NCBI GenBank assembly: GCA_963662405.2
Contig: CAXXKT010000001.1
Location: 672,001-736,000 of the forward strand
DNA length: 64,000 bases
Source of the DNA: Syntrophales bacterium
GTDB taxonomy: Bacteria > Desulfobacterota > Syntrophia > Syntrophales > UBA2210
Direction of reading: 5' to 3'
This document shows positions 6,783 through 24,057 of the stretch, one piece after another; position 1 is the first letter of the stretch, and each line of letters starts with the position of its first letter. Below the pieces are notes generated by a model. It had not been told where the DNA came from and ran no database searches. It saw only the letters and a list, made by a program, of their open reading frames with translations. Position numbers and translations under genes: made by a program.

Positions 6783-8150
6783 TCAAGAGAGTTTTTTCCT
6801 TCGATAACGGAAGGTATGATGGTTTAAGTTGAGAAGCTTCGCCGCCTTGGATTCATTCCCCTTCGCGATACGTAATGCCTCGGAAATGTAGTAATCTTCC
6901 ACGGTGCTTTCAATCGAAGAAATATCGACCCCTTCCTCCGTCAAGGGCGGGAAAGAAAAATTCTTTGGGTCGAATGTTTCTGTTTCCACAATGCCGAGGT
7001 CATTTTTTTCTATGGATGGCTCTTGCGCTGTCAGGACGGCTCGTTCGATCATATTCTTGAGCTCTCTGATATTGCCGGTCCAGCGATGGGTTGCGAGTGC
7101 CTCAATCGCCCCATCTGAAAAGTTGGTGAATATTCTCCCGAATTTATCGGAAAAGTGAAGCAGAAAGTGGTGTGCGAGGGGAAGGATATCATCTGGACGG
7201 TCGTTCAGCGAAGGGATAGTCACGACAATGACGGCGAGGCGGAAGTACAGATCCTGGCGGAAGAGTTTGTTATCTATAAGGGTATGGAGATCTTTGTTGG
7301 TTGCGGAGACGACCCGTGTGTGCACCTGCAGCTTCGCGGTTCCCCCAACCCGATAGAACTCACCCTCTTCGAGGAAGCGAAGAAGTTTTGCCTGGGCTTC
7401 CATACTGAGGTCTCCCACTTCATCCAGGAAGAGGGTTCCTCCTCCTGCCGCCTCGATGAGGCCTTTCTTCCCGCTCGTGCTGGCACCACTGAAGGCGCCT
7501 TTCTCATATCCAAAGAGTTCGCTTTCTATCAGATCTTTCGGGATGGCCGCACAGTTGACCGTTATAAAAGGGCCCTTGAAGTTAGGACTTCTATGGTGAA
7601 TGGCGCTGGCGATCAGTTCTTTCCCGGTGCCGGTTTCACCGAGGATCAGTATCGGGGTGTCGGGGCTTTTTGCGACCATCCCGATAAACTTGAGCACATT
7701 ATGTATCTCATTGCTCTCGGCAACAAAACAGGGGATATTCTCTGCGAGATATTCTTCCTGGAGATCCTGGACTTCCTTGCGTAATCGAATCGTACTGAGT
7801 GCATTGCGAATGGTAATTTCAAGTCCATCCATGACGATGGGTTTGACGACATAATCATATGCGCCGAGCTTCATGGCGGAGATGACCGTTTGGATATCCT
7901 CGTACGCGGTGATCATAATCACCAGGATATCGTGACATTCCTTTCTGATATGGTGGAGGGCCTTGATACCGTCCATCCCGGGCAATCCAATGTCAAGGAG
8001 TATCAGGTCCGGAGGGTTTGATTGCATCGACTCGAGGGCGGATTCCGCTGTTGCGAAGGTATATATACGATATTCTGATTCAAGGGAAAAGCGGATACCG
8101 GTTCGTATTATTTCGTCGTCGTCGATGATGTATATGGAGTATTGTGTCAT
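6783..8150 (-). CDS. Sigma-54-dependent response regulator (REC-AAA+-HTH, NtrC family)
   Basis: IIDDD/LLDIGLP receiver, GETGTGKE Walker A, GAFSGA loop, LFLDE, GNIREL, C-terminal Fis-type HTH. Confidence 0.95.
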   Translation of the reverse strand: MTQYSIYIIDDDEIIRTGIRFSLESEYRIYTFATAESALESMQSNPPDLILLDIGLPGMDGIKALHHIRKECHDILVIMITAYEDIQTVISAMKLGAYDYVVKPIVMDGLEITIRNALSTIRLRKEVQDLQEEYLAENIPCFVAESNEIHNVLKFIGMVAKSPDTPILILGETGTGKELIASAIHHRSPNFKGPFITVNCAAIPKDLIESELFGYEKGAFSGASTSGKKGLIEAAGGGTLFLDEVGDLSMEAQAKLLRFLEEGEFYRVGGTAKLQVHTRVVSATNKDLHTLIDNKLFRQDLYFRLAVIVVTIPSLNDRPDDILPLAHHFLLHFSDKFGRIFTNFSDGAIEALATHRWTGNIRELKNMIERAVLTAQEPSIEKNDLGIVETETFDPKNFSFPPLTEEGVDISSIESTVEDYYISEALRIAKGNESKAAKLLNLNHHTFRYRRKKLS

Positions 8151-10207
8151 GCCGTTCGGTTCCCTTGTGTGATCGGAATCTGAAAGACAAATTCAGCCCC
8201 GCCCCACTTACTGTCATGAACCACGATTGAACCCCGATGATCGGTAACGATACGCTGGCATATGCTCAGTCCGATACCCGAACCGTCGTGTTTTGTTGTA
8301 TAAAATGGTTCGAAGATCTTGTCTCTCAGGTAATGGGGGATTCCGGGTCCCGAATCGGCGATCCTGGTAGCAATGATGCCGTTTTCACATGCCGTTGTGA
8401 TAGTGATTATTTTTTCTCCCTCTGAGTGGCTCATTGCTTCGGCGGCATTTGAAATGAGGTTTAAGATCAATTCCTCAATCAGTTGGGGGTTGAGCAGAAC
8501 GTCGGAGAGATTCCCATCGATATCCACCTCAAGTGCGATTTTACTTTTCCGCAGACTGACGGAAGAGAGTTCAACGGCATCCAGTATGGGCTTTTTTATA
8601 TTTCCTGCAATGAGTTTGTGCTCGGTCGGCTTGGAAAAATCCATAACCCGTTTGATAACGGATTCGATTTTTTTTGATGCGGAATGGATCTGCTTATAAA
8701 TTTCAGACGCATTTTCCGGAGGTCCACCTTGCTCATGGGATTTTTCAAGGAGATTCAGGTAGATGTTGATCCCCGAGAGAGGATTCCTTATTTCGTGGGC
8801 AATGCCGGCGGCCACCCGCCCCAGGGATGCCATCTTGTCCTGGATCCGCATGAGTTGGTCCACCTCCTTGCTTCTGGTGACGTCCATCATATTCAGCAGG
8901 AAGGCATCTTCCCCATCGTATTTGATCGATGTTCCATGACAGTGGACCCATCGGAAGTGTGATCCTGTATCGAGGGGAAGCAACCGAAATTCTATGTCTA
9001 TGGAGTCTGAGGCATTCGAAGCGATATCATGAAAAAGCTGTTGCACTCTATCGAGGTCCTCCGGATAAATCATTCTCAGATCGACGGGATGTATCTGCCG
9101 TTCTGGTTGCCCGAACAACCGTTGATGCTCGTGATTGCTATAGACAACGGTCTCGTCCTGGATGATGGAGATCCCTGTCGAGGCGTTTTCCGCGAGATCG
9201 CGGAATCGCTGTTCACTTTCGCGCAACCTGTCCTGGTAATTCTTATGCTCGATCAGCCGCAGCATCCCCTGCATAAGCAGCGTTAACTGCCTGACGTCCG
9301 ATTGATCATAATCTCCCTTCTTGTTCGCAACCCCTGCGATGGCATAAATCGTGTCATTGTTAAAGACAGGGATTCCCATATGCCGACTGAGTTTGACATG
9401 CCCCTTTGGATATCCTCTTTTAAAGTAATTCGGGGCGGTATAGTCGTTGGTGACGATGGGCCTGCGTTGCCGAATGGGCTCTCCCCATAATCCCATACTG
9501 TCAAGGTCAAAAATCCGGGATGGATTTTGAATTTTGGATGTCTTCGCCAAACAGGCGTACAGGGTAACCTTTTTCCCCTCTTCATCGACAAGGGCGATAT
9601 ACCCGTACCGGCTTTTCGTCAGTTTGATCCCTTCAGCGACGGCATAGTTGATGAGATCCTCGAGAGAAGCCCCGTCTGCCATCTGATTCAGTTTCAACTG
9701 TGTCTCAAGGCGCGCTTCGTCGAGGCGCAGGGCCTCTTCATTCTGTTTTCTTTCGGTGATATCAAGGTACGAGGCAATGCTTTGATTAGATCCGGCAATA
9801 ACGGCGACTGTTGCCATGATATCCTTGACATTTCCCTGCTTGTCTCTGAATTTGAATTCGTAGTTGCGTGGGACAAGTTGGGGGGCGATCCTCCGGACGG
9901 TGTGATATGCGATCATCGTATCCAGCATATCTTCATCCGCCACGAAGGTATTCCAGCTTATCTTTCCTTCCATCTCTTCCTTGGAGTAACCGGAGAGTTT
10001 TTCAAATTCACGGTTGGTTAAGGAGATGGTCATGTCGTTTTCCGAAATAATCATTGCCGTTCCGGTGTTTTCAAAAATGGTCCGGTACTTATACAGATCT
10101 GCGGTAGTGATATTCTGGTCCCTCAGCGTTTCCTCGTAGTTCAATCTCTGACGAAGTTTGTTGAGTTCACGAATCAATTGCCGTTTTGTTTTCTTTTCAT
10201 CTCTCAT
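8147..10207 (-). CDS. PAS-GAF-PAS sensor histidine kinase (cytoplasmic)
   Basis: AHEIRNPL H-box, NLISNA, DSGPGI, FEPFYTTK, GSGIGL. PAS and GAF (GHVKLSRHMGIP..VANK) domains; no TM segment. Start taken at MRDEKK. Confidence 0.93.
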   Translation of the reverse strand: MRDEKKTKRQLIRELNKLRQRLNYEETLRDQNITTADLYKYRTIFENTGTAMIISENDMTISLTNREFEKLSGYSKEEMEGKISWNTFVADEDMLDTMIAYHTVRRIAPQLVPRNYEFKFRDKQGNVKDIMATVAVIAGSNQSIASYLDITERKQNEEALRLDEARLETQLKLNQMADGASLEDLINYAVAEGIKLTKSRYGYIALVDEEGKKVTLYACLAKTSKIQNPSRIFDLDSMGLWGEPIRQRRPIVTNDYTAPNYFKRGYPKGHVKLSRHMGIPVFNNDTIYAIAGVANKKGDYDQSDVRQLTLLMQGMLRLIEHKNYQDRLRESEQRFRDLAENASTGISIIQDETVVYSNHEHQRLFGQPERQIHPVDLRMIYPEDLDRVQQLFHDIASNASDSIDIEFRLLPLDTGSHFRWVHCHGTSIKYDGEDAFLLNMMDVTRSKEVDQLMRIQDKMASLGRVAAGIAHEIRNPLSGINIYLNLLEKSHEQGGPPENASEIYKQIHSASKKIESVIKRVMDFSKPTEHKLIAGNIKKPILDAVELSSVSLRKSKIALEVDIDGNLSDVLLNPQLIEELILNLISNAAEAMSHSEGEKIITITTACENGIIATRIADSGPGIPHYLRDKIFEPFYTTKHDGSGIGLSICQRIVTDHRGSIVVHDSKWGGAEFVFQIPITQGNRTA

Positions 10208-10249
10208 CGTTTCAACTGCCTGATAGGTCGCGGTTACTGCGTTGCAGAA

Positions 10250-10265
10250 AGCAAGGAGCATGCCA
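10250..10265 (-). promoter_or_regulatory. Sigma-54 (-24/-12) promoter for the kinase/regulator genes
   Basis: Minus strand TGGCATGCTCCTTGCT is GG-N10-GC, ~43 bp upstream of the kinase ATG. Confidence 0.75.
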
Positions 10266-10436: not shown

Positions 10437-10526
10437 CTACATGTGAAGGGCGAGTACGACGGGCTATGAAAAGACGGCTTGATCTAACATGCTGATATAA
10501 TAGATAATATTTTTAGGGTGCAGGGG

Positions 10527-10542
10527 TGGCATAGCTTGTGCT
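10527..10542 (+). promoter_or_regulatory. Sigma-54 (-24/-12) promoter for the 10.6-19.5 kb operon
   Basis: TGGCATAGCTTGTGCT is GG-N10-GC. Confidence 0.7.
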
Positions 10543-10590
10543 CAGGGGGTGGGGAGAGCTTCTATTATTGCAAAAGGATCATCAGGCGAC

Positions 10591-10983
10591 GTGAATAACC
10601 CAACGGCCCTTCATGGAACAAGAATATTGCTTATCGATGATGACCAGTGGATCAGAGACTCCATGACTTTGTACTTTGAAGCGGAAGGATGTCATGTCCG
10701 ATCTTTTGCCACGGCTGAGGAAGGCCTGCCTGTCTTTCAGGACGATATGTGGGATGTGATCATAGTCGATTATCACCTGCCGGGTATGGATGGATTGATG
10801 ATGCTCGATCAGATTCAGAACCGCCAGGAAGGAGTCATAAAGGTCCTGATTACCGCGTATACAAGTGATACGGCTATTTCACGTGCCCGTGACGTCGGTG
10901 TCAACGCTTTTATCGAAAAACCATTTACGGCGGATGACATTGAGACGACGCTTGTGCGACTGCTTCACGAGCGAAGTGCCTGA
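10591..10983 (+). CDS. Single-domain response regulator (receiver)
   Basis: LLIDDD..IVDYHLPGMDG..ITAY..FIEKPF. Start taken at GTG 10591 because the ORF-track start at 10549 falls before the likely transcription start. Confidence 0.88.
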   Translation: MNNPTALHGTRILLIDDDQWIRDSMTLYFEAEGCHVRSFATAEEGLPVFQDDMWDVIIVDYHLPGMDGLMMLDQIQNRQEGVIKVLITAYTSDTAISRARDVGVNAFIEKPFTADDIETTLVRLLHERSA

Positions 10984-11060
10984 GAGGCGGGCGATGGATT
11001 GGTCCGGTAAGACTGTCCATGGTGCGTTGAACGAATATCATGTGATGAGAGGTAGAAACC

Positions 11061-12896
11061 ATGAATAGAAAATCTTATGTCAGATCTGTTCTTCTGATCG
11101 TAGCCGGCATACTGCTGAACCTGGGCATTACATATGTGATCGAATGCTTGGAGGGATCAGTGCCGTTCGATCATGTCGGGACTGTCTTTGTGGCAATCCT
11201 TGGCGGACCGATTGTGGGTGCTGTGGTGGGGCTGGTGAGTGTTCTGCTGTCTGCATTGCTGCAGTATGGGATTGGACTCATCGATGGGATGAACAGTGTC
11301 AACGGGGCCATATTGGGATGCCTTGTTGGCTGGCTGGCAGGACGCGGATTTTTCAAGGAATTTTGGAAAGCGATCGTCCTGGCCGTCGTGGCGGTGTTTG
11401 TGTATGCCTCCATTGTCATGCTCATTGTCACCTATGTCAGGATGACCGGATTCGGTGTGGGGTTCTGGTCCGGTATTGCCGAAGCATTCGCTTACCCCCT
11501 GGCGGTCATGAAAGATTTTATGGGGACCCTCTGGTTTGTCTTTCTCGATAAATTCTTCACCGTCCTGATCTTGTGGGCCTTTTTCAAACTGGTAGGGACG
11601 ATGCTTTTTCGGGGTGTGGCCCAAAATCCACCCACCCTTCCGGCAGCCATTAACACACAGAAGCTCGGAACAAAGCTTGCGGAAATCCCGATCGTGGGTC
11701 CTGTCTGGAAGAAGTTCGTACGTCTGGTCACTATCGTATATGTCGATTATGTTCCCCAATTTCAAAAAGGGAGCGAAACGGTAAAAACGCTCAAGACCTC
11801 GGAGGAGGAACAATACATGTTTAATCAGTACAGAGGATATGGTTTCAGATTACCGCAAAACATTTCGGAGTGGAACAAGGTCAAGGTGCAACTTGTTATC
11901 GGAACGATTCAGTTCGCCGGGGCGAATCATGATCTGCTCAATAAGGAGACAGTGGCACAACAGCTGAATCTCGGCATCGATGAAGTCACCAAGCGGATCG
12001 TCAGGATGTATAACGATCATCTTCTCTTGGTCCCCACCGATGCGGCGTTACAGACTGTTGGTTTTGCGCTGTTCTACATGGTGGTGAAACTGAAGAAGGG
12101 GACGTCTGACAAAAGGAAACAGGAAATATCAGCAATGATCCGCGACAACGATTATGCCTGCACCAGTTTTGAAACAGCGGGTGATTATGATTTCTTCCTG
12201 GGTGCTCATATTACGACCATTGATAACCTCTATAAAACTGTTTTGAAAGAGCTGTATGCCTTACCGGAGCTTGAGGAGCTGACACTGCTTCCGGTCCAGC
12301 GCATGTTGCGGCAGGAGCGTTTGAATCACTGGGATATGAAGACGGATCTGTGGCGGGAAGCGGCATTGATCGAGGGGGAATTGGATAAGCTGGCAGCGAT
12401 TCAGAGTGCACTGGACAAGACGGATCTCAAGATCCTTGAGGTGCTGATGAAGAAACGGGAGATCACCGAATATCTGAATGTCAATTTCCTGTCGAAGAAA
12501 AAAGAGGCAGGCGAGGCGATACTGCGGACACTTGATGAGAAGCGCCTTTTCGTATCACCGGTATTCCTGAATTGGATGAAGCTCAATTATAAGCCCTATT
12601 TCTTTGTCGTCAAATTCAATGAAAAGACCGACTGTGACAAAAAGATAGAACTATCGGACCATCTGGTTGAGACATATCCGGAGTTCAATCTCGCCCTTCA
12701 AGTGACTGATACTTACTATGATTTGTTCCTCGGGAGTTATCAAGGATTGGCGAATGTCGAGGCCGTGAAGAAGGCACTCAAAGAAACACCGGGAGTTGAA
12801 GATGTCAGAGAGATGGTTGCGACACGGCAGCATCGGATGTGGACGACCAAACTATCGGAAGAGAACTGGGGTGAATGCGTCATGATGTGGGAGTAG
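11061..12896 (+). CDS. ECF S-component-like membrane domain fused to tandem Lrp/AsnC-like (wHTH + ferredoxin-like) domains; function unknown
   Basis: N-terminal ~180 aa has ~5-6 hydrophobic segments with PFDHVGTVFVAILGGPIVGAVVG..FLDK. C-terminal part has VAQQLNLGIDEVTKRIVRM, FETAGDYDF and LDKTDLKILEVL, and is paralogous to 15956-17137. Confidence 0.6.
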   Translation: MNRKSYVRSVLLIVAGILLNLGITYVIECLEGSVPFDHVGTVFVAILGGPIVGAVVGLVSVLLSALLQYGIGLIDGMNSVNGAILGCLVGWLAGRGFFKEFWKAIVLAVVAVFVYASIVMLIVTYVRMTGFGVGFWSGIAEAFAYPLAVMKDFMGTLWFVFLDKFFTVLILWAFFKLVGTMLFRGVAQNPPTLPAAINTQKLGTKLAEIPIVGPVWKKFVRLVTIVYVDYVPQFQKGSETVKTLKTSEEEQYMFNQYRGYGFRLPQNISEWNKVKVQLVIGTIQFAGANHDLLNKETVAQQLNLGIDEVTKRIVRMYNDHLLLVPTDAALQTVGFALFYMVVKLKKGTSDKRKQEISAMIRDNDYACTSFETAGDYDFFLGAHITTIDNLYKTVLKELYALPELEELTLLPVQRMLRQERLNHWDMKTDLWREAALIEGELDKLAAIQSALDKTDLKILEVLMKKREITEYLNVNFLSKKKEAGEAILRTLDEKRLFVSPVFLNWMKLNYKPYFFVVKFNEKTDCDKKIELSDHLVETYPEFNLALQVTDTYYDLFLGSYQGLANVEAVKKALKETPGVEDVREMVATRQHRMWTTKLSEENWGECVMMWE

Positions 12897-12964
12897 CAAT
12901 CTCCTCGGCAGCGATGGCATATGAGCGTGGGTGGATGAGTAGTCGGTAGATTTGAGGTTGTAAA

Positions 12965-14191
12965 GTGACAAGCTTCAAGCAGTTTGCAGCACGACAGGCA
13001 TTAAAATTTTATCCTGATTTTCCGGAAGAATTTATAGAATACCTGGTTGAAAAACTTCGATGGGAAAGACTTGGATGGTTCCAGGGGAGAGTGATTATTA
13101 ATTCATATTTCCCTCCCATTCCCAGCAGGGCCGTGAATAGTGTCGTGAAGGCCTGGCGTTCAGGGATGAAGGGACGGGTTGTCCCCGAGGTAGCCACGGT
13201 AGCCGTGACCAATAAATGTCCTTATAACTGTCTGTATTGCAGCGTTCCTGACAAGACCGTCAGCGATATGTCTGCAGATCTTCTCAAACGTACGATCGGG
13301 CAGATCCAGGATATGGGAAGTTTCCATATCTCATTGACCGGCGGAGAACCGCTGTTACGCGATGATCTTGAAGATATTATCGCCTCCGTAGACGATCGCT
13401 CCGTGGTAAAGCTCTTTACGACAGGGTATTCTTTGACGAAAGAGCGGGCAAAGGCACTGAAAAAAGCGGGGCTCTTCTCGATCAACATCTCTCTCGACAG
13501 CGGTGATCAAGACATTCACGACCATGGGTGTGGATTTGATGGGGCATTCGATATCGCGTTGCGGGCGATCGAACATGCGAAACAGGCATCTCTCCTGACC
13601 TGCGTGGCGACTGTGGCGTCGCACAACGGTGTCTTGGGTGGAGAAATGAATCAGTTCTTGCGGTTTCTAAAAAAACAAGGTGTCGATGAGGTGTCGATAT
13701 TTGAACCGGCACCGACGGGGAAAATGTCGTTTCATGAGGAACTGCTCTTGAGTGATGACGAGCGAGAGGCATTGCACGATCTGCATAAGGAGATCAACGA
13801 AAGCGCGGACAAGAGATATCCGCGGGTCTTTTCATTCCCCTATGTGGAAGGCGCGGATTATATGGGATGTGGGGCCGGTTGCACACGGTTACATGTGACC
13901 GCACTGGGCCACGTGACGCCCTGTGATTTCACCTCGATTTCGTTCGGAAATATTCAACGAGAAAACATTGAAACGATATGGGACCGGATGAAGAGGTATT
14001 TCAATCAGCCGGACTGCGGTTGTTTTATATGCCATAATTTCAAGGAATTGAGAGGCATGTATGACGATCGGTCCGGTATGGCTGATGGTGATATGCTGGT
14101 AAAGAGAGGTAAGATGATGAAGGAAAGTCATCCACCGGCATTTTATAAATTGTTGATGGTGACGCAAGATACAAAACCAACGATATTTTAG
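12965..14191 (+). CDS. Radical SAM enzyme with SPASM/twitch C-terminus
   Basis: CPYNCLYC, TGGEPLLR, SLD; C-terminal CGAG..G.VTPC..GNI..C.CFIC. Confidence 0.92.
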   Translation: MTSFKQFAARQALKFYPDFPEEFIEYLVEKLRWERLGWFQGRVIINSYFPPIPSRAVNSVVKAWRSGMKGRVVPEVATVAVTNKCPYNCLYCSVPDKTVSDMSADLLKRTIGQIQDMGSFHISLTGGEPLLRDDLEDIIASVDDRSVVKLFTTGYSLTKERAKALKKAGLFSINISLDSGDQDIHDHGCGFDGAFDIALRAIEHAKQASLLTCVATVASHNGVLGGEMNQFLRFLKKQGVDEVSIFEPAPTGKMSFHEELLLSDDEREALHDLHKEINESADKRYPRVFSFPYVEGADYMGCGAGCTRLHVTALGHVTPCDFTSISFGNIQRENIETIWDRMKRYFNQPDCGCFICHNFKELRGMYDDRSGMADGDMLVKRGKMMKESHPPAFYKLLMVTQDTKPTIF

Positions 14192-14201
14192 GAGGAACGA
14201 C

Positions 14202-14450
14202 ATGTCGAATGAGAATGAGGGGAAAATTATAGCAATTATTGCCGAAGTGTTTGAAATGAGTAAGAAAGCAGTGACGAGAGACAAGGATTTCGTCAAGGAT
14301 TTCAAGGCAAAATCGATCAAAATCATAGAGATGTGTGCGATGCTCGAAGATGAGTTCGATATTGAGATCGATATGGAAGACGCGCGAAAAAATGCGACGG
14401 TTGGTGAAGCTATTGACTATACGCTGGAACTTATCGATGCGCAACAGTGA
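14202..14450 (+). CDS. Acyl carrier protein (atypical phosphopantetheine motif)
   Basis: 82 aa; FVKDFKAKSIKIIE..LEDEFDIEI..TVGEAIDY; RBS AGGAGG; acpS nearby. Confidence 0.85.
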   Translation: MSNENEGKIIAIIAEVFEMSKKAVTRDKDFVKDFKAKSIKIIEMCAMLEDEFDIEIDMEDARKNATVGEAIDYTLELIDAQQ

Positions 14451-14468
14451 TACGCGGTTGCTAAGGAG

Positions 14469-15482
14469 GTGACGCTCTTAATGGAGAAGAATAATACATT
14501 CATAGATGATTTGAAGGTTCGTGTCCAGGGAAAAGGAATACGGGTTGTGTTCCCTGAAGCCGAAGAACCTCGTATCCTGAAAGCCGCATCGATCGCACGG
14601 GCTCAAAATATCGCCATTCCCATACTGGTAGGAGATCCGCAAAAGGCACATGATATTGCAAAAGACCACGGCATCGATATTACCGGGATGGAGATCATTC
14701 TTCCCGAGGAATCCGTACAGTTTGATGCCTATGCGGAGACATATCGTGCATCAACGACACTCCGCGAGGGAGCTGTGAGAAGATTGTTAAAAAAACCGGT
14801 TTTCTACGCGGATATGATGGTGAAGGTGGGAGATGCGGATGCCATGGTCGGCGGTGCGGTGTACGAAACGGCGACCGTGATTATGGCGGGAACCATGGTA
14901 ATCGGGATGAAAGAGGGAGCATCCACTCCGTCGAGTTTCTTTGTCATGGATATCCCCGGATTTGAAGGAGGAGAGAACGGCAAACTCATATTCGCGGATT
15001 GTGCTGTGGTCCCGGACCCGAGTGCCGAGGAGTTGGCTGACATCGCCATAGCGAGTGCGGATAGTGCGAAAAAGCTCCTGGGTTGTGTTCCCCGGGTCGC
15101 CATGCTCTCGTTTTCGACGAAGGGGAGCAGCCTGGAGCCCCCGGTTGAAAAGGTTATTCGTGCAACGGAAATAATCAAGGAACGGAGGTCGGATATATTG
15201 GTGGACGGGGAATTACAGGTAGATACCGCCATTGTTCCCGCGATCGCTCAGAAAAAGATCAAGGGGAAAAGCCCCGTTGCCGGTCAGGCCAACGTACTGA
15301 TCTTCCCGGATTTGAACTCGGGGAACATCGGGTACAAACTGGTCCAGCGCCTGGCGGGGGCCGACGCGATCGGTCCTCTCTTGCAGGGATTTGCGAAACC
15401 GGTGTGTGATCTGTCCCGCGGTGCAACCGTGGAGGATATCATTGGTTCGATCGTAATGACGGCGATACAGGCGATCGATTAG
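14469..15482 (+). CDS. pta: Phosphate acetyltransferase / phosphotransacylase
   Basis: VFPEAEEPR, FADCAV, AMLSFSTKGS, DGELQ.D, GNIGYKLVQRL, DLSRG. Confidence 0.92.
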   Translation: MTLLMEKNNTFIDDLKVRVQGKGIRVVFPEAEEPRILKAASIARAQNIAIPILVGDPQKAHDIAKDHGIDITGMEIILPEESVQFDAYAETYRASTTLREGAVRRLLKKPVFYADMMVKVGDADAMVGGAVYETATVIMAGTMVIGMKEGASTPSSFFVMDIPGFEGGENGKLIFADCAVVPDPSAEELADIAIASADSAKKLLGCVPRVAMLSFSTKGSSLEPPVEKVIRATEIIKERRSDILVDGELQVDTAIVPAIAQKKIKGKSPVAGQANVLIFPDLNSGNIGYKLVQRLAGADAIGPLLQGFAKPVCDLSRGATVEDIIGSIVMTAIQAID

Positions 15483-15492
15483 GTTCAGGAAG

Positions 15493-15882
15493 GTGAATCC
15501 CGTGATTTATGGTGTTGGGATCGATATCGAAAAAAAAGATCGTTTGCGAAAGGCATTGGAGCTCAATGAGCGGGCGTTTCTGAAGTATGTGTTCGCCCCG
15601 CAGGAGGTGTCCTATGCACGGAGGCAGGAGGATCTGGTGTCGCATCTGACGGCTATTTTTTCTGCGAAAGAAGCGGTTCTCAAGACCGTGGGTACCGGTT
15701 GGAAAGGCGGGGTCAGGTTGACCGATATTGAGATCTGCCATGATTCTCATGGGAAGCCGGAGGTCGTCTTGTCCGGGAATCTTCAAAGGATAGCTGCCTC
15801 ACGTCATATCACGACAATCATGGTGTCGCTTTCTTATGAGGATACCTATGCGGTTTCTTACGCCGTCGCCCTGACCGGGTAA
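15493..15882 (+). CDS. acpS: Holo-ACP synthase
   Basis: GVGIDI, FSAKEAVLK.VGTG, GKPEV, VSLSYE..YAVS. Confidence 0.9.
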   Translation: MNPVIYGVGIDIEKKDRLRKALELNERAFLKYVFAPQEVSYARRQEDLVSHLTAIFSAKEAVLKTVGTGWKGGVRLTDIEICHDSHGKPEVVLSGNLQRIAASRHITTIMVSLSYEDTYAVSYAVALTG

Positions 15883-15955
15883 GAGCATGTAGCAATAGAG
15901 GGTAGGGAACGTGAAACAAAAGATAAACAAAACGACTGTAAGAGAGGAGAGTCAC

Positions 15956-17137
15956 ATGGGAAAGATTCAAAAAAGATTTGGGTTGCTGTTTGCATTGATT
16001 GTTGCGTGTGTCTTTTTAGTGAGTGTCTCGGTTGTCGGCGCGGAAGATAAGTATTACTGGCCGCCTGAGAGAGGCTACCATAAGCTTTTACCGTTTGCGA
16101 AAGAGTATCTGAAGAAGGAAAACACATCGGGCTATGCATTGGCCAAGGCAACGAGAACGGCGGATATCGTCAACCTCGACTATGTGACGCAAAAGGTAGG
16201 GATCAGCAAGAAAGAGGCGGCAAAACGAATTAACAGAATGTTCGACGAGCACCTCATTCGACTGACGGCGGATTCTCCCATCGATAATCGAGGATTCGGA
16301 CTTTATTATACCGCTATAAAGCTGAAACCCGAAGCAACCCCGGAACAGAAGGCGAAACTATCCGAGATTATGCAGAATGAAGATCATGTCTGCACCGGGT
16401 ACGAGGTGGAAGGTGACTTTGACTTTGTTCCGGCGTTCCATGTGACGACACTGGAGGTGTCCGAAAAATATGTCAGGTCCTATTTCGAAAAGTCAGGTGT
16501 CCTTGAGTCGTATCAGTTGCTTCCCATTCAGAGAATTCTCCGTCAGGAACGTATTAATCATTGGGGTGCTCCGATTTCGATGTGGAATGAGGTCGTATAT
16601 GCCCCCAACGAATTCGAAAAACTTGCCAAGATCCAGGACAAACTGGATATAACGGACCTGAAGATCATAGAGGCGATGCAGGAAAAACGAGCGGCAAAGG
16701 ATTTTTACAACTGGGATTTTGTTGCCAAGAAGACCGGTCTCAAAAAAGACGGCCTGATCAATGGACTTGAGCACGCCTGGGCTGAGCGGATGTTTGTGCT
16801 GCCGGTTTTTATGAACTGGATGAAATTAGGGTACACGAATCACATCTTCTTCGTCAAGATGAGCAGGAAGCTGACCTCGGATGAGAAACTCGCAATCGGT
16901 GACAAATTTGCTGAAAATCCTTCATTTAATCTGGTTTTCCAGTTCAACGACTGTGAGTTCACCTATGCCCTTGGCGCCTGGACAAAACTGACCGACATCG
17001 ATGCCCTCAGAGATGCAATCAAGGGTGTCAGTGGTGTAGAGGGAATCAAGGAAGTCAACCTGACCAGACAGTGGAGGCAGTGGACGTGCCGCCTGGATGA
17101 TGACAACTGGGATAACTGCAAGTATTGCGTCGATTAA
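15956..17137 (+). CDS. Signal-peptide-bearing tandem Lrp/AsnC-like protein; function unknown
   Basis: MGKIQKRFGLLFALIVACVFLVSVSVVGA/EDK is a Sec-like leader. Body has KVGISKKEAAKRINRM, YEVEGDFDF and LDITDLKIIEAM. Shares LP.QR.LRQER.NHW, PVF.NWMKL.Y and RQ.R.WT..L...NW with 11061-12896. Confidence 0.6.
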   Translation: MGKIQKRFGLLFALIVACVFLVSVSVVGAEDKYYWPPERGYHKLLPFAKEYLKKENTSGYALAKATRTADIVNLDYVTQKVGISKKEAAKRINRMFDEHLIRLTADSPIDNRGFGLYYTAIKLKPEATPEQKAKLSEIMQNEDHVCTGYEVEGDFDFVPAFHVTTLEVSEKYVRSYFEKSGVLESYQLLPIQRILRQERINHWGAPISMWNEVVYAPNEFEKLAKIQDKLDITDLKIIEAMQEKRAAKDFYNWDFVAKKTGLKKDGLINGLEHAWAERMFVLPVFMNWMKLGYTNHIFFVKMSRKLTSDEKLAIGDKFAENPSFNLVFQFNDCEFTYALGAWTKLTDIDALRDAIKGVSGVEGIKEVNLTRQWRQWTCRLDDDNWDNCKYCVD

Positions 17138-17150
17138 TGAGTCCTCTATC

Positions 17151-17187
17151 GAAGTGGGTGAGGGATGTGTGTCCCCTCGCCCACTTC
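17151..17187 (+). other. Strong intergenic hairpin without U-tract (mRNA stability/processing element?)
   Basis: GAAGTGGGTGAGGGA..TCCCCTCGCCCACTTC inverted repeat. Confidence 0.5.
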
Positions 17188-17238
17188 ACCCCCTGCAGTA
17201 TGAAAGAAATTCGAATTAGTTGGTAAGGAGTTTGTAAT

Positions 17239-18459
17239 ATGAATATCCTGACGTTTAACTGCGGAAGCTCATCGCTGACGTACAAGATATTTCGAGCCGG
17301 GTCCGATGACGATATAGAGATCGCCGTATCCGGAAAGGCTCACCGTGTCGGTGTTACCGGAAGTGAACCATCTTTCATTGAACACAACTATAACGGACAA
17401 TATGAAAAAAATACACTGCCCATAGCGAGTCATCGGGAAGCCGCGGCGCTTGTATTTCAATATGTAAAAAAAAACGGCATACCCATTGACCTTATCGGTC
17501 ACCGGTTTGTTCATGGTGCAACATATTTCCCGAGGACCGCGATCATTACGGATGAAGCGTTAGAGACGCTTGAAATTTGCCTTCCTTTTGCCCCCCTGCA
17601 CAATCCTATCTCCATGAGTGTCATTAAAGAGTCACGCGCGACGCTCCCTTCGGTGAAGGAATATATTACATTTGACGGGGCATTTCATTCAACCATACCG
17701 GATTATGCCTATACCTATGCGCTACCGGATGAGGTTATCGAACAATATGGATACCGGAAATACGGTTTTCACGGTTTATCCTTCCAGTATGTCAGTGGGG
17801 AATCGGCACGATTTCTGAACGTCCCGCTGGAAGAGTTGAAGTTGGTGATGTGTCATCTCGGTACCGGGGGATCAAGCGTCTGTGCCGTAAAAGACGGTTA
17901 TTCCATAGACAATTCTCTCGGATACACGCCTCTCCCGGGGCTCATCATGAGTACCAGATCGGGTGACATCGATCCAATGGCCGTCATCTTTCTGATGAAC
18001 AACTATGGATATACCCCGGATAACCTGGAGGCCCTTTTGAACAAAAAGGGGGGAATCTTGGGAATATCAGGATTCTCGAGTGATCCGCGCGATATTATCG
18101 AAGCGATCAAGACGGATGAGACAAAACGGGATATCGCACAGCTCGCCCTTGATATGTATGTACAACGGCTGAAAAAATATATCGGCGCCTATATTGCGGT
18201 CATGGGGGGGATTGATGCACTGGTATTTACCGATGATGTCGGGGTCCTGAGCGCGGTGATACGGGAAGAGGTGTGCAAGAGCATGGGCTGGTGCGGAGTT
18301 GAGCTTGATTATGATCTCAATCGAACCGTCGACCCGAAACAGGATTCCATCGTGAGTACGGAGCAATCAAAGGTATACGTCATGACGGTTCCCACAGCCG
18401 AAGAACTGGTTATCTGCCGGGAGGGCCTGAAACTACAAAGAGAAGGAGAAGCAGCATGA
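17239..18459 (+). CDS. ackA: Acetate kinase family protein with Entamoeba-type (PPi-dependent) signatures
   Basis: NCGSSSLTYK, GHRFVHG, APLHNP, KYGFHGLS, HLGTGGSS, TRSGDIDP, FTDDVG, TAEEL. Confidence 0.9.
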   Translation: MNILTFNCGSSSLTYKIFRAGSDDDIEIAVSGKAHRVGVTGSEPSFIEHNYNGQYEKNTLPIASHREAAALVFQYVKKNGIPIDLIGHRFVHGATYFPRTAIITDEALETLEICLPFAPLHNPISMSVIKESRATLPSVKEYITFDGAFHSTIPDYAYTYALPDEVIEQYGYRKYGFHGLSFQYVSGESARFLNVPLEELKLVMCHLGTGGSSVCAVKDGYSIDNSLGYTPLPGLIMSTRSGDIDPMAVIFLMNNYGYTPDNLEALLNKKGGILGISGFSSDPRDIIEAIKTDETKRDIAQLALDMYVQRLKKYIGAYIAVMGGIDALVFTDDVGVLSAVIREEVCKSMGWCGVELDYDLNRTVDPKQDSIVSTEQSKVYVMTVPTAEELVICREGLKLQREGEAA

Positions 18460-19499
18460 TTGTAATTTTTGATCCTCAGCCGCCTTTCATCCGATGGTAC
18501 AAAATGACAGAGAGCGGCTTCACAGAGAAGCAGTGTATATATCAGAACGGTTGGGAAAAAGAAGTCTCGGCTGATCTCGAAGGGATCACCGGTGCCGCCT
18601 ATGTCTTGTATAACGGGGGCGATGAAATCGTCACATCACCGGTCACTATTGATCGGAGTCTTATGGCAACAGTTGAAAAGACTGTTCCCTTGTCACCTGA
18701 GCGTAATAAGATGACCCTTGAGGCAATTCGTTACTGCTATGAACAGATGCCCGGAATTCGGCATACCATTGTCTGTGAAACGGCATTGTATGGTGCCCTC
18801 CCGCCAAAATCCCGAAATTATGCAGTCCCCCTGGAACTCAGAGAGAAGGGAATAAAGCGCTACGGTGGATATGGGCTGGAACATGGATACATGGTGGAAA
18901 AGGTAAAACCGGTATTAGGAGATGCGCATCATAAGGTGATCAGTGTCTTCCTGGGGCCTGAAACCAATGTGACGGCCTTTGAAGATGGCTGTCCATTGGA
19001 GACATCAATCGGTTTTAGTACTGCGGAGGGGATCCCTTCCCTCCATGGTTGCGGTGATACCGACGCCTCGTTTGTCTTTCTGATGCAGGAGGCCGGTTGG
19101 GCACTCAAGGATATCGCCCCGGTTTTTTCTCAAAAAGGTGGACTCTGTGCGTTGATGGGAAAAGAAGATAGTACCTTAGGCGATATCCTCCATGCCGGAG
19201 TAGACACTATCGCCTACAAGGTGCTCCGATATTCCGTAATAAAATATATGGGAAATGCTGTCGCGCAACTGAGAGGGGCTGATGCCTTTCTCATACACGG
19301 CGAGAATCCGATTAAAACGGTGGGGCCGTTTATTCGGGATGTATGCCGGAATTTTGAGTTCATCGGCCTGACCTGTGCAGAGACAGATGAAGAATTGCCG
19401 GGAGGTTTGTTCATTCTTTCCGGGAAAGAATCATCGATAAAGGTGTTGTATGTCCAGTGCGCCAGGCCCGAACTGCTCGGAACATGCGTCAATCAGTAG
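18456..19499 (+). CDS. Degenerate acetate kinase-like protein (catalytic motifs lost)
   Basis: Colinear with AckA but YVLYNGG replaces HRVVHGG, CETALY replaces FDTAFH, KRYGGYGLEH replaces RYGFHGxSH, and FLGPET replaces HLGNG. ATGA overlap with ackA. Confidence 0.75.
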   Translation: MIVIFDPQPPFIRWYKMTESGFTEKQCIYQNGWEKEVSADLEGITGAAYVLYNGGDEIVTSPVTIDRSLMATVEKTVPLSPERNKMTLEAIRYCYEQMPGIRHTIVCETALYGALPPKSRNYAVPLELREKGIKRYGGYGLEHGYMVEKVKPVLGDAHHKVISVFLGPETNVTAFEDGCPLETSIGFSTAEGIPSLHGCGDTDASFVFLMQEAGWALKDIAPVFSQKGGLCALMGKEDSTLGDILHAGVDTIAYKVLRYSVIKYMGNAVAQLRGADAFLIHGENPIKTVGPFIRDVCRNFEFIGLTCAETDEELPGGLFILSGKESSIKVLYVQCARPELLGTCVNQ

Positions 19500-19742
19500 T
19501 GCACCGAGCTTCCCCGCATCCGTTTTTTCGTTCTCCTTCAGCGGGTGGGGGGGCCGATATATAGGCAGATATAACAAGCAGATTCTGTACCTTTGAAGTC
19601 CTGCCTCGCTTGGATCGGGGGGGTATTTACACAACAATCATTCCGGTTGAGGAAATACCCCCCGATCCTTTTTTCCTGTATAGGTGTGTTGCCAGGATGG
19701 AAGCAACATGCGTGGGTACGGCAGGCTCCCCTGTCCTTCCCG

Positions 19743-20189
19743 TTACGCCGGATCCGTTCCGGTCGGCAGGGGTTCATCTCCAAGAACCAGTTCGGGTTGT
19801 CCACGCGAGCGGCGAAGATGATTGATGAATCGGAGCGTGGAACCGCGGGTGACAAGCCACCGTTCGAACCGGAACTTCCCGGGGAAATTCATGAGCGCGA
19901 TCCCGAGCAGGATCGTCAGGATACCCTGGCCGGGAAGCACCAGCAGGGTAATGCCGGACAGGACAAACACGACGCCGAAAAAGTTTTTCACGATCTGGAG
20001 CAACAGCCATATAGCTGGCCGCTCCCGGTGTATCGTGGACAACCCGGGCCGTCTCCGCCCGGAGAAATAATCTTCCGGAATTCGGACCACCACCCACGGA
20101 ACGGCCGCCAGGGCTCCCGCGAACACCACGAGCGAGACCCCCGCTATCCCGAAAAAAAGCATCTCATGGTTCTGAATCCAGCCGAACAT
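19743..20189 (-). CDS. PGPGW-domain small membrane protein
   Basis: IPEDYF..VKNFFG..LLVLPGQGILTILLG..FPGK. Confidence 0.8.
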   Translation of the reverse strand: MFGWIQNHEMLFFGIAGVSLVVFAGALAAVPWVVVRIPEDYFSGRRRPGLSTIHRERPAIWLLLQIVKNFFGVVFVLSGITLLVLPGQGILTILLGIALMNFPGKFRFERWLVTRGSTLRFINHLRRSRGQPELVLGDEPLPTGTDPA

Positions 20190-20600
20190 TTACCCTCTCT
20201 TGCTCATCAGTTCAAAGATAGCGCCCCCCGGCCCTCCCGCGTCGAGATAGGCAAAACGTCCCGGGTCATGGATGAGAAGATTGGCGCCCTCCTCGACCAG
20301 CCGGGCGACTTCCGCGTCGACATCGTCGACGAAAAACCCGAGGTGATGGACCCCTTCGCCCCACTTGTCGATAAATTTCGACTGGAAGATTCGACCTTCC
20401 AGGGACTGCACCAATTCGATTTCCACCGGTCCCACATAGGCGAAGGCCATGCGGATCTTCCAAGGCCGCCCTTTGACATCCGTTCCCCCGTTTTCCTGAA
20501 ACGTCCAGGGACCGATGCCGTAGAGCCGGGACCAGGTCTCGATAGTCGCATCGATGTCGGTGACTGCGTAACTGATGTGATCAATAGATTGAATCTTCAT
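20190..20600 (-). CDS. VOC/glyoxalase family protein (methylmalonyl-CoA epimerase-like)
   Basis: IDHISYAV, EIELVQ, GEGVHHLGF.VDD, FELM; RBS GAGGAGG. Confidence 0.85.
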   Translation of the reverse strand: MKIQSIDHISYAVTDIDATIETWSRLYGIGPWTFQENGGTDVKGRPWKIRMAFAYVGPVEIELVQSLEGRIFQSKFIDKWGEGVHHLGFFVDDVDAEVARLVEEGANLLIHDPGRFAYLDAGGPGGAIFELMSKRG

Positions 20601-20612
20601 AACACCTCCTCT

Positions 20613-20673
20613 TGCTAATATGCTTTTCAGCAGTCGCGGTTTTTTCTGGTCCGCTGTAAAAGTCTTGTTAGGC
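20613..20673 (-). mobile_element. Integron attC-like recombination site (R' degenerate)
   Basis: Minus strand GCCTAAC-AAGAC-TTTTACAGCGG..CTGCTGAAAAG-CAT-ATTAGCA; 61-bp imperfect hairpin whose R'' overlaps the stop codon of the DUF2971 gene. Confidence 0.7.
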
Positions 20674-21617: not shown

Positions 21618-22182
21618 CGGCAATCCGATCATAATCTCCCCCCTTGGACTACGATTAAGGGAATATACATGAGACATGGTTAATGAAGCAACGATACCGA
21701 TCTCTTAGCGTCATCATCGTATCCTGTCAAGAAATATTGCCGGCAACATGATGGATGTACGAGGCTCTCCGGAGATGTCGATGGAGACACCCGTGGTGCG
21801 CGCCGGGTCGCTGGCATTGTTTGTATTGGATAAGGATATTCCCGCTCAGATACACTGTATTCGGATCCCTGGAAACGGAACGTTCGCGATGCCCCCGAGG
21901 AGCCCCGGCAGGTTCAATCGGGGAAAGTGATCTGCATATCAGCCGAAAACCTTTTGAATTTGTTTTTAAAATTCGCGTTTACCTGCAGCCGTTTGTATGA
22001 TGTTGTTTCTCTCCGAGGCCGTTGCACGGAGATTGGTCAAATATCTGGTAGCATTCAAACGAAAATCATGATAGGCGCTACAGGGTAAAATGAACGGGGG
22101 TCATTCTTTCTTGAGTTGCCGGAGACAATAGGTATTTCGGTGCCTTTAACCATCAAAACATAGTATTAGGAGGAGGTAAAGT

Positions 22183-24057
22183 ATGTCAGTGAACACATTG
22201 GTTGATTCTCGTGATGTCCGCTTTGTTCTCTTCGAGCTGTTGGAAATGGAAAAGTTGAATCGGTATGAGTGCTTCCAGGATTTCGACCGCTCCGTTTACG
22301 AAGACACCCTGGAACTTGCGGAAAAGATTGCCGTCGAGCAATTCTATCCGTCCAACGTCGACGGAGACCAGATAGGGCTCAAGTACGATGCCAAGGAGCA
22401 CACCGTCACCGTACCCGAATCGTTTCACAAGGGATTCCAAGCGTATGTCGAAGCCGGCTTCCACATCCTGGCATTTCCTCAGGATGTCGGTGGAGTGGGT
22501 ATCCCCACCACGATCTCCATGGCGGCCGCGGAGTATTTTAACGCGGGGAACACGGCGCTGACCATGTACGGAGGTTCGATCACCGGCGCCATGGCCCTTA
22601 TCCTGAATTTCGGGTCCGACGAGCTGAAGGAGATGTTTCTCCCCAAGATGTTCGAGGGGACCTGGGGCGGCACCATGTGTCTGACCGAGCCGAGCGCCGG
22701 CTCCGACGTGGGCGCACTCAAGAGCAAGGCGGTCAAGCAGGCCGACGGCACCTATCTCATTACCGGCCAGAAGATCTTCATCAGCAACGGCGAGTCCGAT
22801 CTGACCGAGAACATCATCCATCCTGTCCTGGCCAGGATCGAGGGTGATCCTCCGGGGACAAAGGGGATCTCTATCTTCATCGTTCCGAAGTACCTGGTCA
22901 ATCCGGACGGCTCCCTGGGCGAGCGCAACGACATGTACTGCGCCGGCGTCGAGCACAAGATGGGGCTCAAGGGAAACGCCACCTCGTCGCTGGCCTTCGG
23001 CGAAGAGGGCAAGTGTGTCGGCTACCTCCTGGGTGAGGAGCGTCAGGGGATGCCGATCATGTTTCAGCTCATGAATTCGGCCCGCATCCACACGGGCGTT
23101 CAGGCCGAGGCTTGTTCCAGCGCCGGCTACATGCACGCCGTCACCTACGCCCGCAACAGGGTCCAGAGCGTTCATATCACCCAATCCATGAATAAGGCCG
23201 CCCCGCCTGTCAACATCATCGAGCACCCCGACGTCAAGCGGATGCTGCTGTACATGAAGAGCACCGTCGAGGGAATGCGGATGCTCTGCCTCTTCCTCGC
23301 CTATCACGAGGACGTCATGCACGCCTCGAAGGACCCCGAGGAGGTGAAGGCGGCGAAGGGGATCGTCGAGATCCTGACCCCCATCGTGAAGGCGGGCATA
23401 TCCGACGAGGCCTGGCTGGTCACGTCCGAGGCAATCCAGGTGTATGGCGGTTACGGGTACTGCAGTGAATACCCGGTCGAGCAGTACGCCCGCGACGTCA
23501 AGGTCCTCTCCGTCTATGAGGGTACGAACGCCATTCAGTCCCTCGACCTCCAGATGCGCAAGATCCTCATGAACCCCGAGATGTACAACTACGGGCAGCT
23601 CAGGAAGTGGATGAACGGGACAATCGACAAGGCCAAGGGTGTGGTGGACGAGAAGTACATCTCCCCCGTCGTCAAGGGGCTCGCGAAGCTCGACGAGATC
23701 ATTGAGATGATGAAGGGACAGCTGGGTGAAGGCAAGATCTTGGCCCTGGTCCTCAACGCCACGCCGTTCCAGCAGGCCATGTTCCCCCTCGTCCTGGCCT
23801 GGCTGCACCTGTGGAGTCTCACGATCACGACCCCCAAGGCGAAGGAACTCCTGGGCGACGCAAAGGGCGAGGAGCGCCAGAAGAAGATCGCGGAAGACGC
23901 CGAGGCGGCGTACTACAGCGGCAGGATGCTCTCGTCGCAGTTCTACATCGGCGCGGAATTCCCCAAATTCTTCGGCCGGGTGGAATGCATTATGAACAAC
24001 GAAGGGGCGGCCCTGAAGGTCGATTCGGCGAACTTCACCGGAGCGCCTCTGGAATAG
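22183..24057 (+). CDS. Acyl-CoA dehydrogenase (long ~600-aa type)
   Basis: GTMCLTEPSAGSDVG, GQKIFIS, EHKMG, AIQVYGGYGY, YEGTNAIQ; RBS AGGAGG. Confidence 0.95.
   Translation: MSVNTLVDSRDVRFVLFELLEMEKLNRYECFQDFDRSVYEDTLELAEKIAVEQFYPSNVDGDQIGLKYDAKEHTVTVPESFHKGFQAYVEAGFHILAFPQDVGGVGIPTTISMAAAEYFNAGNTALTMYGGSITGAMALILNFGSDELKEMFLPKMFEGTWGGTMCLTEPSAGSDVGALKSKAVKQADGTYLITGQKIFISNGESDLTENIIHPVLARIEGDPPGTKGISIFIVPKYLVNPDGSLGERNDMYCAGVEHKMGLKGNATSSLAFGEEGKCVGYLLGEERQGMPIMFQLMNSARIHTGVQAEACSSAGYMHAVTYARNRVQSVHITQSMNKAAPPVNIIEHPDVKRMLLYMKSTVEGMRMLCLFLAYHEDVMHASKDPEEVKAAKGIVEILTPIVKAGISDEAWLVTSEAIQVYGGYGYCSEYPVEQYARDVKVLSVYEGTNAIQSLDLQMRKILMNPEMYNYGQLRKWMNGTIDKAKGVVDEKYISPVVKGLAKLDEIIEMMKGQLGEGKILALVLNATPFQQAMFPLVLAWLHLWSLTITTPKAKELLGDAKGEERQKKIAEDAEAAYYSGRMLSSQFYIGAEFPKFFGRVECIMNNEGAALKVDSANFTGAPLE

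Follow-up and report, generated by a model that had tools for sequence, protein, structure and literature searches.

The window analysed here is a 64,000-nucleotide stretch of DNA from a Syntrophales bacterium (contig CAXXKT010000001.1, positions 672,001 to 736,000), and the gene under study is an open reading frame at positions 17239-18459 of the window that encodes a protein of the acetate kinase (ACK) family. A preliminary description, made from the sequence alone, had recognised in this protein the signature motifs of the ACK of Entamoeba histolytica (EhACK), which uses pyrophosphate and phosphate (PPi/Pi) in place of ATP/ADP, and had suggested a prokaryotic PPi-dependent acyl kinase that was possibly related to the donor lineage of the amoebal gene. 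We found that the window kinase falls in a clade with EhACK and apart from canonical AckA, and that its gene overlaps a second gene, coding for a catalytically dead ACK paralogue, which recurs beside other bacterial kinases of this type.

The kinase gene and its downstream paralogue

The features of the two genes are as follows, with coordinates given as positions of the window.

17239..18459, + strand: Entamoeba-type acetate-kinase-family gene (P0001), 406 amino acids (aa), one open frame, catalytic residues intact
17225..17230, + strand: Shine-Dalgarno sequence AAGGAG of the kinase gene, read from the sequence, with the ATG 8 nucleotides (nt) further on
17854..17877, + strand: PHOSPHATE2 motif HLGTGGSS (aa 206-213), with Thr for the canonical Asn plus one additional Gly
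18076..18096, + strand: LOOP4 motif SSDPRDI, with the Asp and Arg of the EhACK Asp272-Arg274 salt bridge kept and Pro for the Phe of NDFRD in Methanosarcina thermophila ACK
18226..18243, + strand: ADENOSINE motif FTDDVG (aa 330-335), canonically FT(A/G)G(I/V)G and in EhACK FTDQMG
18456..19499, + strand: catalytically dead ACK paralogue (the partner), 347 aa, Pfam PF00871 E 7.2e-33

The kinase matched PF00871 over profile positions 2-391 of 392 (E 2.1e-117, 392.6 bits, cut-off 22) and NCBIfam TIGR00016 with 393 bits (cut-off 293), and the motif matches are therefore not due to chance. In addition to HLGTGGSS and FTDDVG, the translation contains GSSSLTYK (aa 9-16, nt 17263-17286), SGKAHRVGVTGSEPSFIEH (aa 31-49, nt 17329-17385) and GHRFVHG (aa 87-93, nt 17497-17517), such that all the strings quoted in the preliminary description are present. 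The Entamoeba strings that it had cited were also correct: alignment with the solved EhACK (4H0O) shows NVGSSSLTYKVF, RVNVTGTEKPFIEH, CHLGTGGSS and LVFTDQMGLE, as well as SSSLTYKVF.

In M. thermophila ACK the catalytic residues are N7, R91, H123, D148, H180, R241 and E384. The catalytic columns of the window kinase (N7, S10-12, R89, H121, D146, H178, R240 and E388) were the same as those of active ACKs and invariant across the 26 diverse clade rows of alignment A1. V91, L120, F177 and P231, in the four columns that we take to make up the acetate pocket, were identical to M. thermophila ACK, and for this reason a broad C2-C8 acyl kinase, considered as a candidate, is not favoured. The predicted structure of the kinase (predicted local distance difference test score, pLDDT, 87.2) has the two-domain ASKHA fold, with template modelling (TM) scores of 0.82-0.88 to nine solved ACKs.

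The differences from ATP-dependent ACKs lie at the nucleotide site. Alignment with the ACKs of M. thermophila (1G99) and Thermotoga (2IIR) placed a one-residue insertion in the PHOSPHATE2 loop of the kinase, where the canonical sequences have a gap. T209 stands for Asn, next to the extra Gly, D332 for Ala or Gly, D333 for an invariant Gly, V336-L337 for Glu-Asn and P283 for the Phe of LOOP4; T209, G210, G211 and D332 were invariant across the 26 rows. LOOP4 aligned with SSDMRDI of EhACK, with both salt-bridge residues present in the sequence alignment.

The start of the partner gene overlaps the stop of the kinase gene (ATGA at 18456-18459), and the partner has its own AAGGAG at 18443-18448. 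In its product N7 is changed to Asp, GSSS of PHOSPHATE1 to PQPP, H178 to Tyr and R240 to Gly, and the equivalents of R89 and E388 are lost. The conservation of the gene was examined in 80 metagenome loci, comprising 33 with an extended-loop kinase, 40 with a canonical kinase and 7 that were unclassified and left out; a locus was counted if it held at least 1000 nt of downstream sequence. An ACK-like gene lay directly downstream at 16 of 20 extended-loop loci versus 1 of 28 canonical loci; in this sole exception (L096) a frameshift divides the kinase gene. The extended-loop loci without a partner were L034, L036, L038 and L043. Seventeen partners fell on one side of a branch with a Shimodaira-Hasegawa-like approximate likelihood ratio test (SH-aLRT) support of 100, and the split within them mirrors the kinase tree.

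With nearly every catalytic residue gone, the paralogue could be taken for a decaying duplicate without function, but it has an unbroken frame with a Shine-Dalgarno site of its own, and the pair persists over deep branches of the kinase tree. Between the window and a 90%-identical relative, L004, the partner gave a ratio of nonsynonymous to synonymous substitution rates (dN/dS) of 0.19, where the kinase gave 0.08. The partner's Atlas clusters have 79-234 members, most commonly from Chloroflexota, Planctomycetota and Omnitrophota, phyla also named for the kinase matches. The partner is under purifying selection, and we regard decay as very improbable.

A complex of kinase and partner was predicted from their own alignments and scored 0.94 in three runs by ipSAE (interaction prediction score from aligned errors), where the best of 3 controls scored 0.00; 116 of 157 solved complexes attain this mark, as do 2 of 215 mismatched pairs. 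The runs agreed in 100% of contacts, with a partner pLDDT of at least 91. The predicted interface is the C-terminal-domain face and takes in 74 of the 347 partner residues, among them 11 of the 23 that are conserved (p = 0.003). What such a model demonstrates is that the dead copy can still be fitted to the ACK dimer face, and not that the partner binds. We consider it probable that kinase and partner form a real heterodimer. The kinase would then work together with a translationally coupled dead paralogue that stands in for the second chain of the usual ACK homodimer.

Other genes were observed next to the pair elsewhere in the clade. In a sister subgroup a gene with a weak match (79-94 bits) to PF02649 (FolE2/GCHY-1) lies directly after the pair (L019, 9617-10423; L020, 3688-4521; L025, 12198-13058; L026, 5912-6694; L033, 1931-2791), and in L019 it is followed by a formate-tetrahydrofolate ligase gene. 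An M20-peptidase-family gene directly precedes the kinase gene in L050 and L053, and in the deepest extended-loop subgroup (L049, L050 and L053, with FTDT in the ADENOSINE motif) a sigma-54 activator with an XylR_N domain was found upstream at 3 of 3 loci. No FolE2-like or M20-like gene flanks the pair in the window, and the genome's only PF02649 gene (336 bits) is about 317 kb away.

Clade placement and the phosphoryl partner of the kinase

The best solved relative of the kinase was EhACK (4H0O; E 2.4e-106, 359 bits), followed by the Thermotoga enzyme (2IIR, 319 bits) and M. thermophila ACK (1G99, 292 bits); the kinase is 45% identical to the ACK of Entamoeba dispar (P0124). A quick tree of 62 family members placed the extended-loop sequences, including the kinase and the Entamoeba protein, on one side of a branch with an SH-aLRT support of 98, and a second quick tree separated extended-loop from canonical sequences with a support of 99. 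As a split on an alignment that includes the motifs could be circular, the PHOSPHATE2, LOOP4 and ADENOSINE columns were taken out for a more careful tree of 42 rows, 27 extended-loop and 15 canonical. The split was kept with ultrafast bootstrap (UFBoot)/SH-aLRT values of 100/99, and the kinase therefore does not branch with canonical AckA. An alignment and tree had been named beforehand as the check on the preliminary description, whose grouping of the kinase with the Entamoeba-type ACK was thus upheld.

In the same tree the Archamoebae sequences (Entamoeba, Mastigella and Mastigamoeba) form one group (96/92), which is sister to the bacterial subgroup L034/L036/L043 (97/86). The partner gene was absent from 4 of 4 loci of this sister subgroup with enough downstream sequence (L034, L036, L038 and L043), and the window kinase sits in a different, partner-bearing subgroup. 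The suggested relation to the donor lineage of the amoebal gene was hence not borne out, and the careful tree rejects the window's own subgroup as that lineage. The tree fits an old transfer into Archamoebae, as described in the part of PMC8136499 available, with no special link between the window genome and the donor.

Within the amoebal group, the Mastigamoeba protein P0230 and its metagenome sister P0138 carry Asp-Asp in the ADENOSINE motif and Mastigella carries Asp-Gly, and Gln-Met was seen only in Entamoeba among the 270 family proteins compared. This makes Asp-Asp the common state, with Gln-Met peculiar to Entamoeba. Judged from the sequences, the features shared across the clade are the Thr, the extra Gly and the first Asp.

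Homologues of the kinase were searched in a collection of 5.8 billion proteins, and the best 120 matches (53-90% identity) were used. FTDD[IV]G was present in 116 of these 120, whose sources include metagenome-assembled genomes (MAGs) of Omnitrophota, Brevinematales, Elusimicrobia, Bacteroidota, Phycisphaerae and Anaerolineaceae, and the extended PHOSPHATE2 loop was present in 138 of the 270 collected family proteins. The Entamoeba-type kinase is abundant in uncultured anaerobes. A bacterial kinase type with exactly these motif changes has been in print since 2017, when Dang and Ingram-Smith described four Anaerolineaceae ACKs and digester metagenome sequences with the extended loop, the clade-specific Asp and then a second Asp at the position of Entamoeba Gln323 (PMC5517563, cited throughout from the portions of its text available). 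These authors left open whether bacterial ACKs of this type use PPi, ATP or neither, and the available text, section 12 included, does not mention the partner gene. Our literature search found no paper on the dead-partner pair or on its setting with phosphotransacetylase (Pta), acyl carrier protein (ACP) and radical SAM genes, and gave nothing relevant on a pseudokinase or heterodimeric ACK.

The same source bears on the phosphoryl partner of the kinase. The Gly replaced here by Asp333 is described there as "completely conserved" in ATP-dependent ACKs, and at the position of the EhACK Asp that precedes Gln323 in the ADENOSINE motif all other ACKs are stated to have Ala or Gly. Deletion of the extra Gly inactivated an EhACK variant, and the substitutions N213T, G332D and G333Q in Escherichia coli ACK each gave a higher Km for ATP and weaker catalysis. 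A role is also ascribed to the EhACK Asp272-Arg274 salt bridge, and occlusion of the adenosine pocket was proposed for Gln323-Met324; Yoshioka et al. are cited there as favouring Glu327 (PMC5517563). EhACK runs mainly toward acetate and PPi (PMC9983610, from the part available).

The clade-shared changes at the nucleotide site would therefore mean that the kinase does not use ATP/ADP. Most likely it would transfer the phosphoryl group between acetyl phosphate and Pi/PPi, like EhACK, the only assayed member of the clade, with acetyl phosphate and Pi converted to acetate and PPi as the main direction. On the strength of the clade-shared Thr, extra Gly and first Asp, we find Pi/PPi plausible as the phosphoryl partner and lean slightly towards it.

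Two other assignments were weighed. The kinase might be an ordinary ATP/ADP-dependent acetate or propionate kinase in which the motif differences are neutral lineage variation. It does have the fold and catalytic residues of ATP-dependent ACKs, a pta gene lies nearby, as for many canonical ack genes, and the Gln-Met pair blamed for occlusion in EhACK is not present. Against this stand Asp333, where ATP-dependent ACKs have an invariant Gly, and Thr209, where the canonical residue is Asn, together with the effects of the single E. coli substitutions given above, and the fixation of T209, G210, G211 and D332 over a deep clade; we judge ATP dependence improbable. Alternatively, Asp-Asp could create a new site for a partner that is neither ATP nor PPi, such as another nucleotide, polyphosphate or a phosphorylated metabolite. 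The bacterial Asp at the Entamoeba Gln position allows for this, as raised by the 2017 authors (PMC5517563), and the FolE2-like gene after the pair in the five sister-subgroup loci hints at something beyond plain acetate metabolism. Asp-Asp nonetheless occurs in the amoebal group too (P0230 and P0138), as expected of a common state, parsimony favours one shared donor for the clade, and none of the results indicates a candidate. We consider such a different donor unlikely, if somewhat less so than ATP.

The gene cluster and the role of the pair

The kinase and its partner close a run of genes at 10549-19499, all on the + strand with small gaps and operon-like. The order is a receiver domain, a membrane protein, a radical SAM/SPASM enzyme, ACP, Pta, holo-ACP synthase (AcpS), a 408-aa protein, a hairpin, the kinase and the partner. 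The features upstream of the pair are listed below.

11061..12896, + strand: membrane protein, 611 aa, with an N-terminus weakly similar to the S component of ECF transporters (PF12822, 25.7 bits, below the cut-off)
12965..14191, + strand: radical SAM/SPASM enzyme of no named subfamily (PF04055 and PF13186)
14202..14450, + strand: extra acyl carrier protein (PF00550; TIGR00517 58-59 bits, cut-off 70)
14469..15482, + strand: phosphotransacetylase Pta (PF01515 E 2.7e-105; TIGR00651 328 bits, cut-off 311)
15493..15882, + strand: extra holo-ACP synthase AcpS (PF01648 E 5e-19)
15911..17137, + strand: rare double Lrp/AsnC, NirDL-like protein, 408 aa, with an N-terminal hydrophobic helix and no Pfam match
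17151..17187, + strand: hairpin between the NirDL-like gene and the kinase gene, 14-bp perfect stem, no T-tract after it

Elsewhere the genome carries a housekeeping acpP (C3:440019) and a second AcpS (C1:2530155), and a profile search of the genome found the cluster Pta to be its only PTA_PTB gene. The order ACP-Pta-AcpS (14202-15882, gaps of 18 and 10 nt) was observed as unusual, Pta standing between a carrier protein and its activator, and this placement raises the question of whether Pta acts on the ACP. The best NCBIfam matches of the radical SAM/SPASM enzyme (MoaA-archaeal, GeoRSP, AhbD and NirJ2) were all far under their cut-offs. The model of the 408-aa protein (pLDDT 83.5) had the siroheme decarboxylase NirDL (4CZC/4CH7, E 2e-9) as its best fold match, and the C-terminal half of the 611-aa membrane protein is a paralogue of it (36% identity). 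Two NirDL-like proteins flanking a radical SAM gene recall tetrapyrrole side-chain chemistry, although no family cut-off was met. The 408-aa protein had 11 relatives among the 5.8 billion proteins. A search did not find it in any of 300 other genomes from the phylum and turned it up in 1 of 399 Clostridia genomes, and it is therefore too rare to define its partners. At the Clostridia locus (L115, G380:C11, 1035-3665) the homologue is abutted by a gene similar to ADP-forming acyl-CoA synthetases (domains CoA_binding_2, Succ_CoA_lig and Ligase_CoA_2), whose start codon directly follows the last codon of its neighbour. The NirDL-like protein thus adjoins acid/thioester enzymes in both contexts seen, the window and L115.

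The hairpin at 17151-17187 has a dG of -27.9 kcal/mol (z -4.7), a stability that none of 200 shuffled sequences attained, and may serve for processing or stabilisation. Scans for promoters and terminators gave results close to background; the sigma-54 promoter pattern gave 21 matches versus 20.1 expected, and its match at 10527-10542 cannot be taken as genuine. Just upstream of the cluster, the opposite strand (6783-10261) encodes a sigma-54 response regulator as well as a PAS histidine kinase. Downstream of the pair, a 341-aa frame rich in Arg, Pro and Gly (19593-20618, + strand) lies over minus-strand genes for a PGPGW membrane protein (19743-20189) and a glyoxalase-fold protein (20190-20600), and is probably not a gene.

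The extended-loop kinase was found in 0 of 40 relatives and in 0 of 400 other sampled genomes of the phylum, where the best identity was 43% and 37 of 37 top loci inspected lacked the extended loop. Five same-genus genomes matched the window DNA in the flanks only (5000-5377, 20205-20612 and 22040-24057), and the G+C content is 46-53% in the cluster and 55-60% further out. The block looks acquired and the kinase a recent arrival in its genome. A scan of genome contigs with a single protein yielded one true relative, L004, a MAG labelled uncultured Syntrophaceae, which carries the same cluster. In L004 the NirDL-like gene before the kinase gene is cut down to its first 116 codons, with a TGA (7652-7999), and a more distant paralogue (34%) follows the partner gene (10457-11677).

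The window kinase is the only intact ACK of the genome, the third PF00871 match, on contig 3, being an N-terminal remnant with an in-frame TGA. This remnant (L003 about 1480-1800; G000:C3:331962-332258) covers the first ~100 ACK residues (NGGSSSIK...GHRLGH), runs into the frame of an unrelated membrane protein and looks like the relic of a lost ack gene.

Bacteria of the genus Syntrophus make ATP from acetyl-CoA, AMP and PPi with an AMP-forming synthetase. The genome of the window encodes a membrane H+-pyrophosphatase (H+-PPase) and two AcsA proteins scoring above the cut-off. In the proposed pathway, the cluster Pta would supply acetyl phosphate from acetyl-CoA, acetyl-CoA would in this way give PPi in place of ATP, and both the H+-PPase and the AMP-forming acyl-CoA synthetases could draw on that PPi. 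Taken as a whole, the proposal that the gene encodes a catalytically competent acyl-phosphate/short-chain-acid kinase which uses Pi/PPi, forms a heterodimer with the dead paralogue and is fed by the cluster Pta seems to us evenly balanced.

A number of points weigh against this proposal. At the positions of EhACK Gln323-Met324 the kinase has Asp333-Val334, and at that of Glu327 it has Leu (4H0O alignment); the fold search of the PDB cannot separate EhACK from ATP-dependent ACKs, all of which fall at TM 0.82-0.88; and we found no published assay of any bacterial Entamoeba-type ACK in the literature. Since ACK homodimers have been solved, the complex prediction may have passed through likeness to them, and EhACK functions, and the partner-less bacterial subgroup occurs, without a partner. 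A pta gene is nearby in only 2 extended-loop lineages (window/L004 and L032). Lastly, Pta lies between the extra ACP and AcpS and beside a radical SAM gene, and the cluster may therefore serve a specialised pathway and not bulk acetate metabolism.

The last point can be developed into a carrier-protein pathway in which an acid is activated via its acyl phosphate, Pta loads or unloads the dedicated ACP, and the radical SAM/SPASM and NirDL-like proteins act on the acid, with no acetate made for energy. Such a pathway concerns the role of the pair and not the donor, and is compatible with the Pi/PPi-using heterodimer that we prefer. It would account for the ACP-Pta-AcpS order within a single-strand run with gaps of 10-28 nt, for the extra copies of ACP and AcpS, for the absence of the whole block at the DNA level from the five same-genus genomes, for the rarity of the NirDL-like protein in the phylum and for the acyl-CoA synthetase-like neighbour of its homologue in Clostridia. 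However, Pta scores above the cut-off of the pta equivalog, the kinase has the same acetate pocket as M. thermophila ACK, and many genomes have the pair of kinase and dead partner but none of these neighbours; a strong hairpin also stands between the upstream genes and the pair, and the cluster is conserved only in one close relative, L004. We think it unlikely that the pair serves this kind of pathway.

Extending the heterodimer reading beyond the window, bacterial Entamoeba-type ACKs could be obligate active/dead heterodimers that make PPi from acetyl phosphate, the Pta and heterodimer module acquired horizontally by this genome providing substrate-level PPi from acetyl-CoA for the H+-PPase and for AMP-forming synthetases run in reverse, and the amoebal enzyme could stem from a bacterial subgroup that shed its partner. 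We offer this only tentatively and think it rather less probable than not.

To our knowledge, EhACK has for fifty years been the sole PPi-forming acetate kinase known. A bacterial relative beside Pta provides a natural pathway context and a tractable system for the question of ATP versus PPi use; as the kinase type alone is already in print, it is the partner and the context that give the locus its value. Should the dead paralogue be a required subunit, reasoning from the single EhACK chain would need to be revisited, and assays of the bacterial enzyme expressed alone would be affected likewise. Conversion of acetyl-CoA into PPi instead of ATP would offer a smaller energy quantum to anaerobes living near the thermodynamic limit, and would fit the PPi-linked enzymes of the genome.

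Comparison with known systems

The closest characterised system is EhACK (EC 2.7.2.12, 4H0O), which is Pi/PPi-dependent and shares with the window kinase the clade, the HLGTGGSS loop, the first Asp of the ADENOSINE motif, the Asp and Arg of LOOP4 and the catalytic residues. The two differ at Gln323-Met324 (Asp-Val in the window kinase), at Glu327 (Leu) and in one acetate-pocket column, which holds Pro in the window kinase and Thr in Entamoeba. The window kinase also has a conserved dead-paralogue partner and a nearby Pta, whereas EhACK has no known source of acetyl phosphate according to the part of PMC9983610 available.

The Anaerolineaceae ACKs of Ornatilinea, Longilinea, Flexilinea and Leptolinea share the extended loop and the Asp-Asp of the ADENOSINE motif (PMC5517563), and P0092, a protein from an Anaerolineaceae MAG, belongs to the same partner-bearing main group as the window kinase. 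The host phylum is different, being Thermodesulfobacteriota here (Syntrophaceae-like, by the label of the nearest MAG), where the type was seen in none of the 400 other genomes sampled.

Canonical AckA, as in M. thermophila (1G99/1TUY), is an ATP-dependent homodimer with the same fold (TM 0.85), the same catalytic and four pocket residues and, as here, a neighbouring pta. The window kinase departs from it in a PHOSPHATE2 motif that is one residue longer with Thr for Asn, in FTDDVGVL for FTAGIGEN and in the LOOP4 Pro for Phe, and, where AckA is a homodimer, it probably forms a heterodimer with a dead subunit, as predicted.

An analogous division of labour is found in TsaD, an ASKHA catalytic protein that is partnered by TsaB, a paralogue without an active site, as the second half of the dimer. 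The likeness between TsaD/TsaB and the ACK pair is one of architecture only, and family and chemistry differ.

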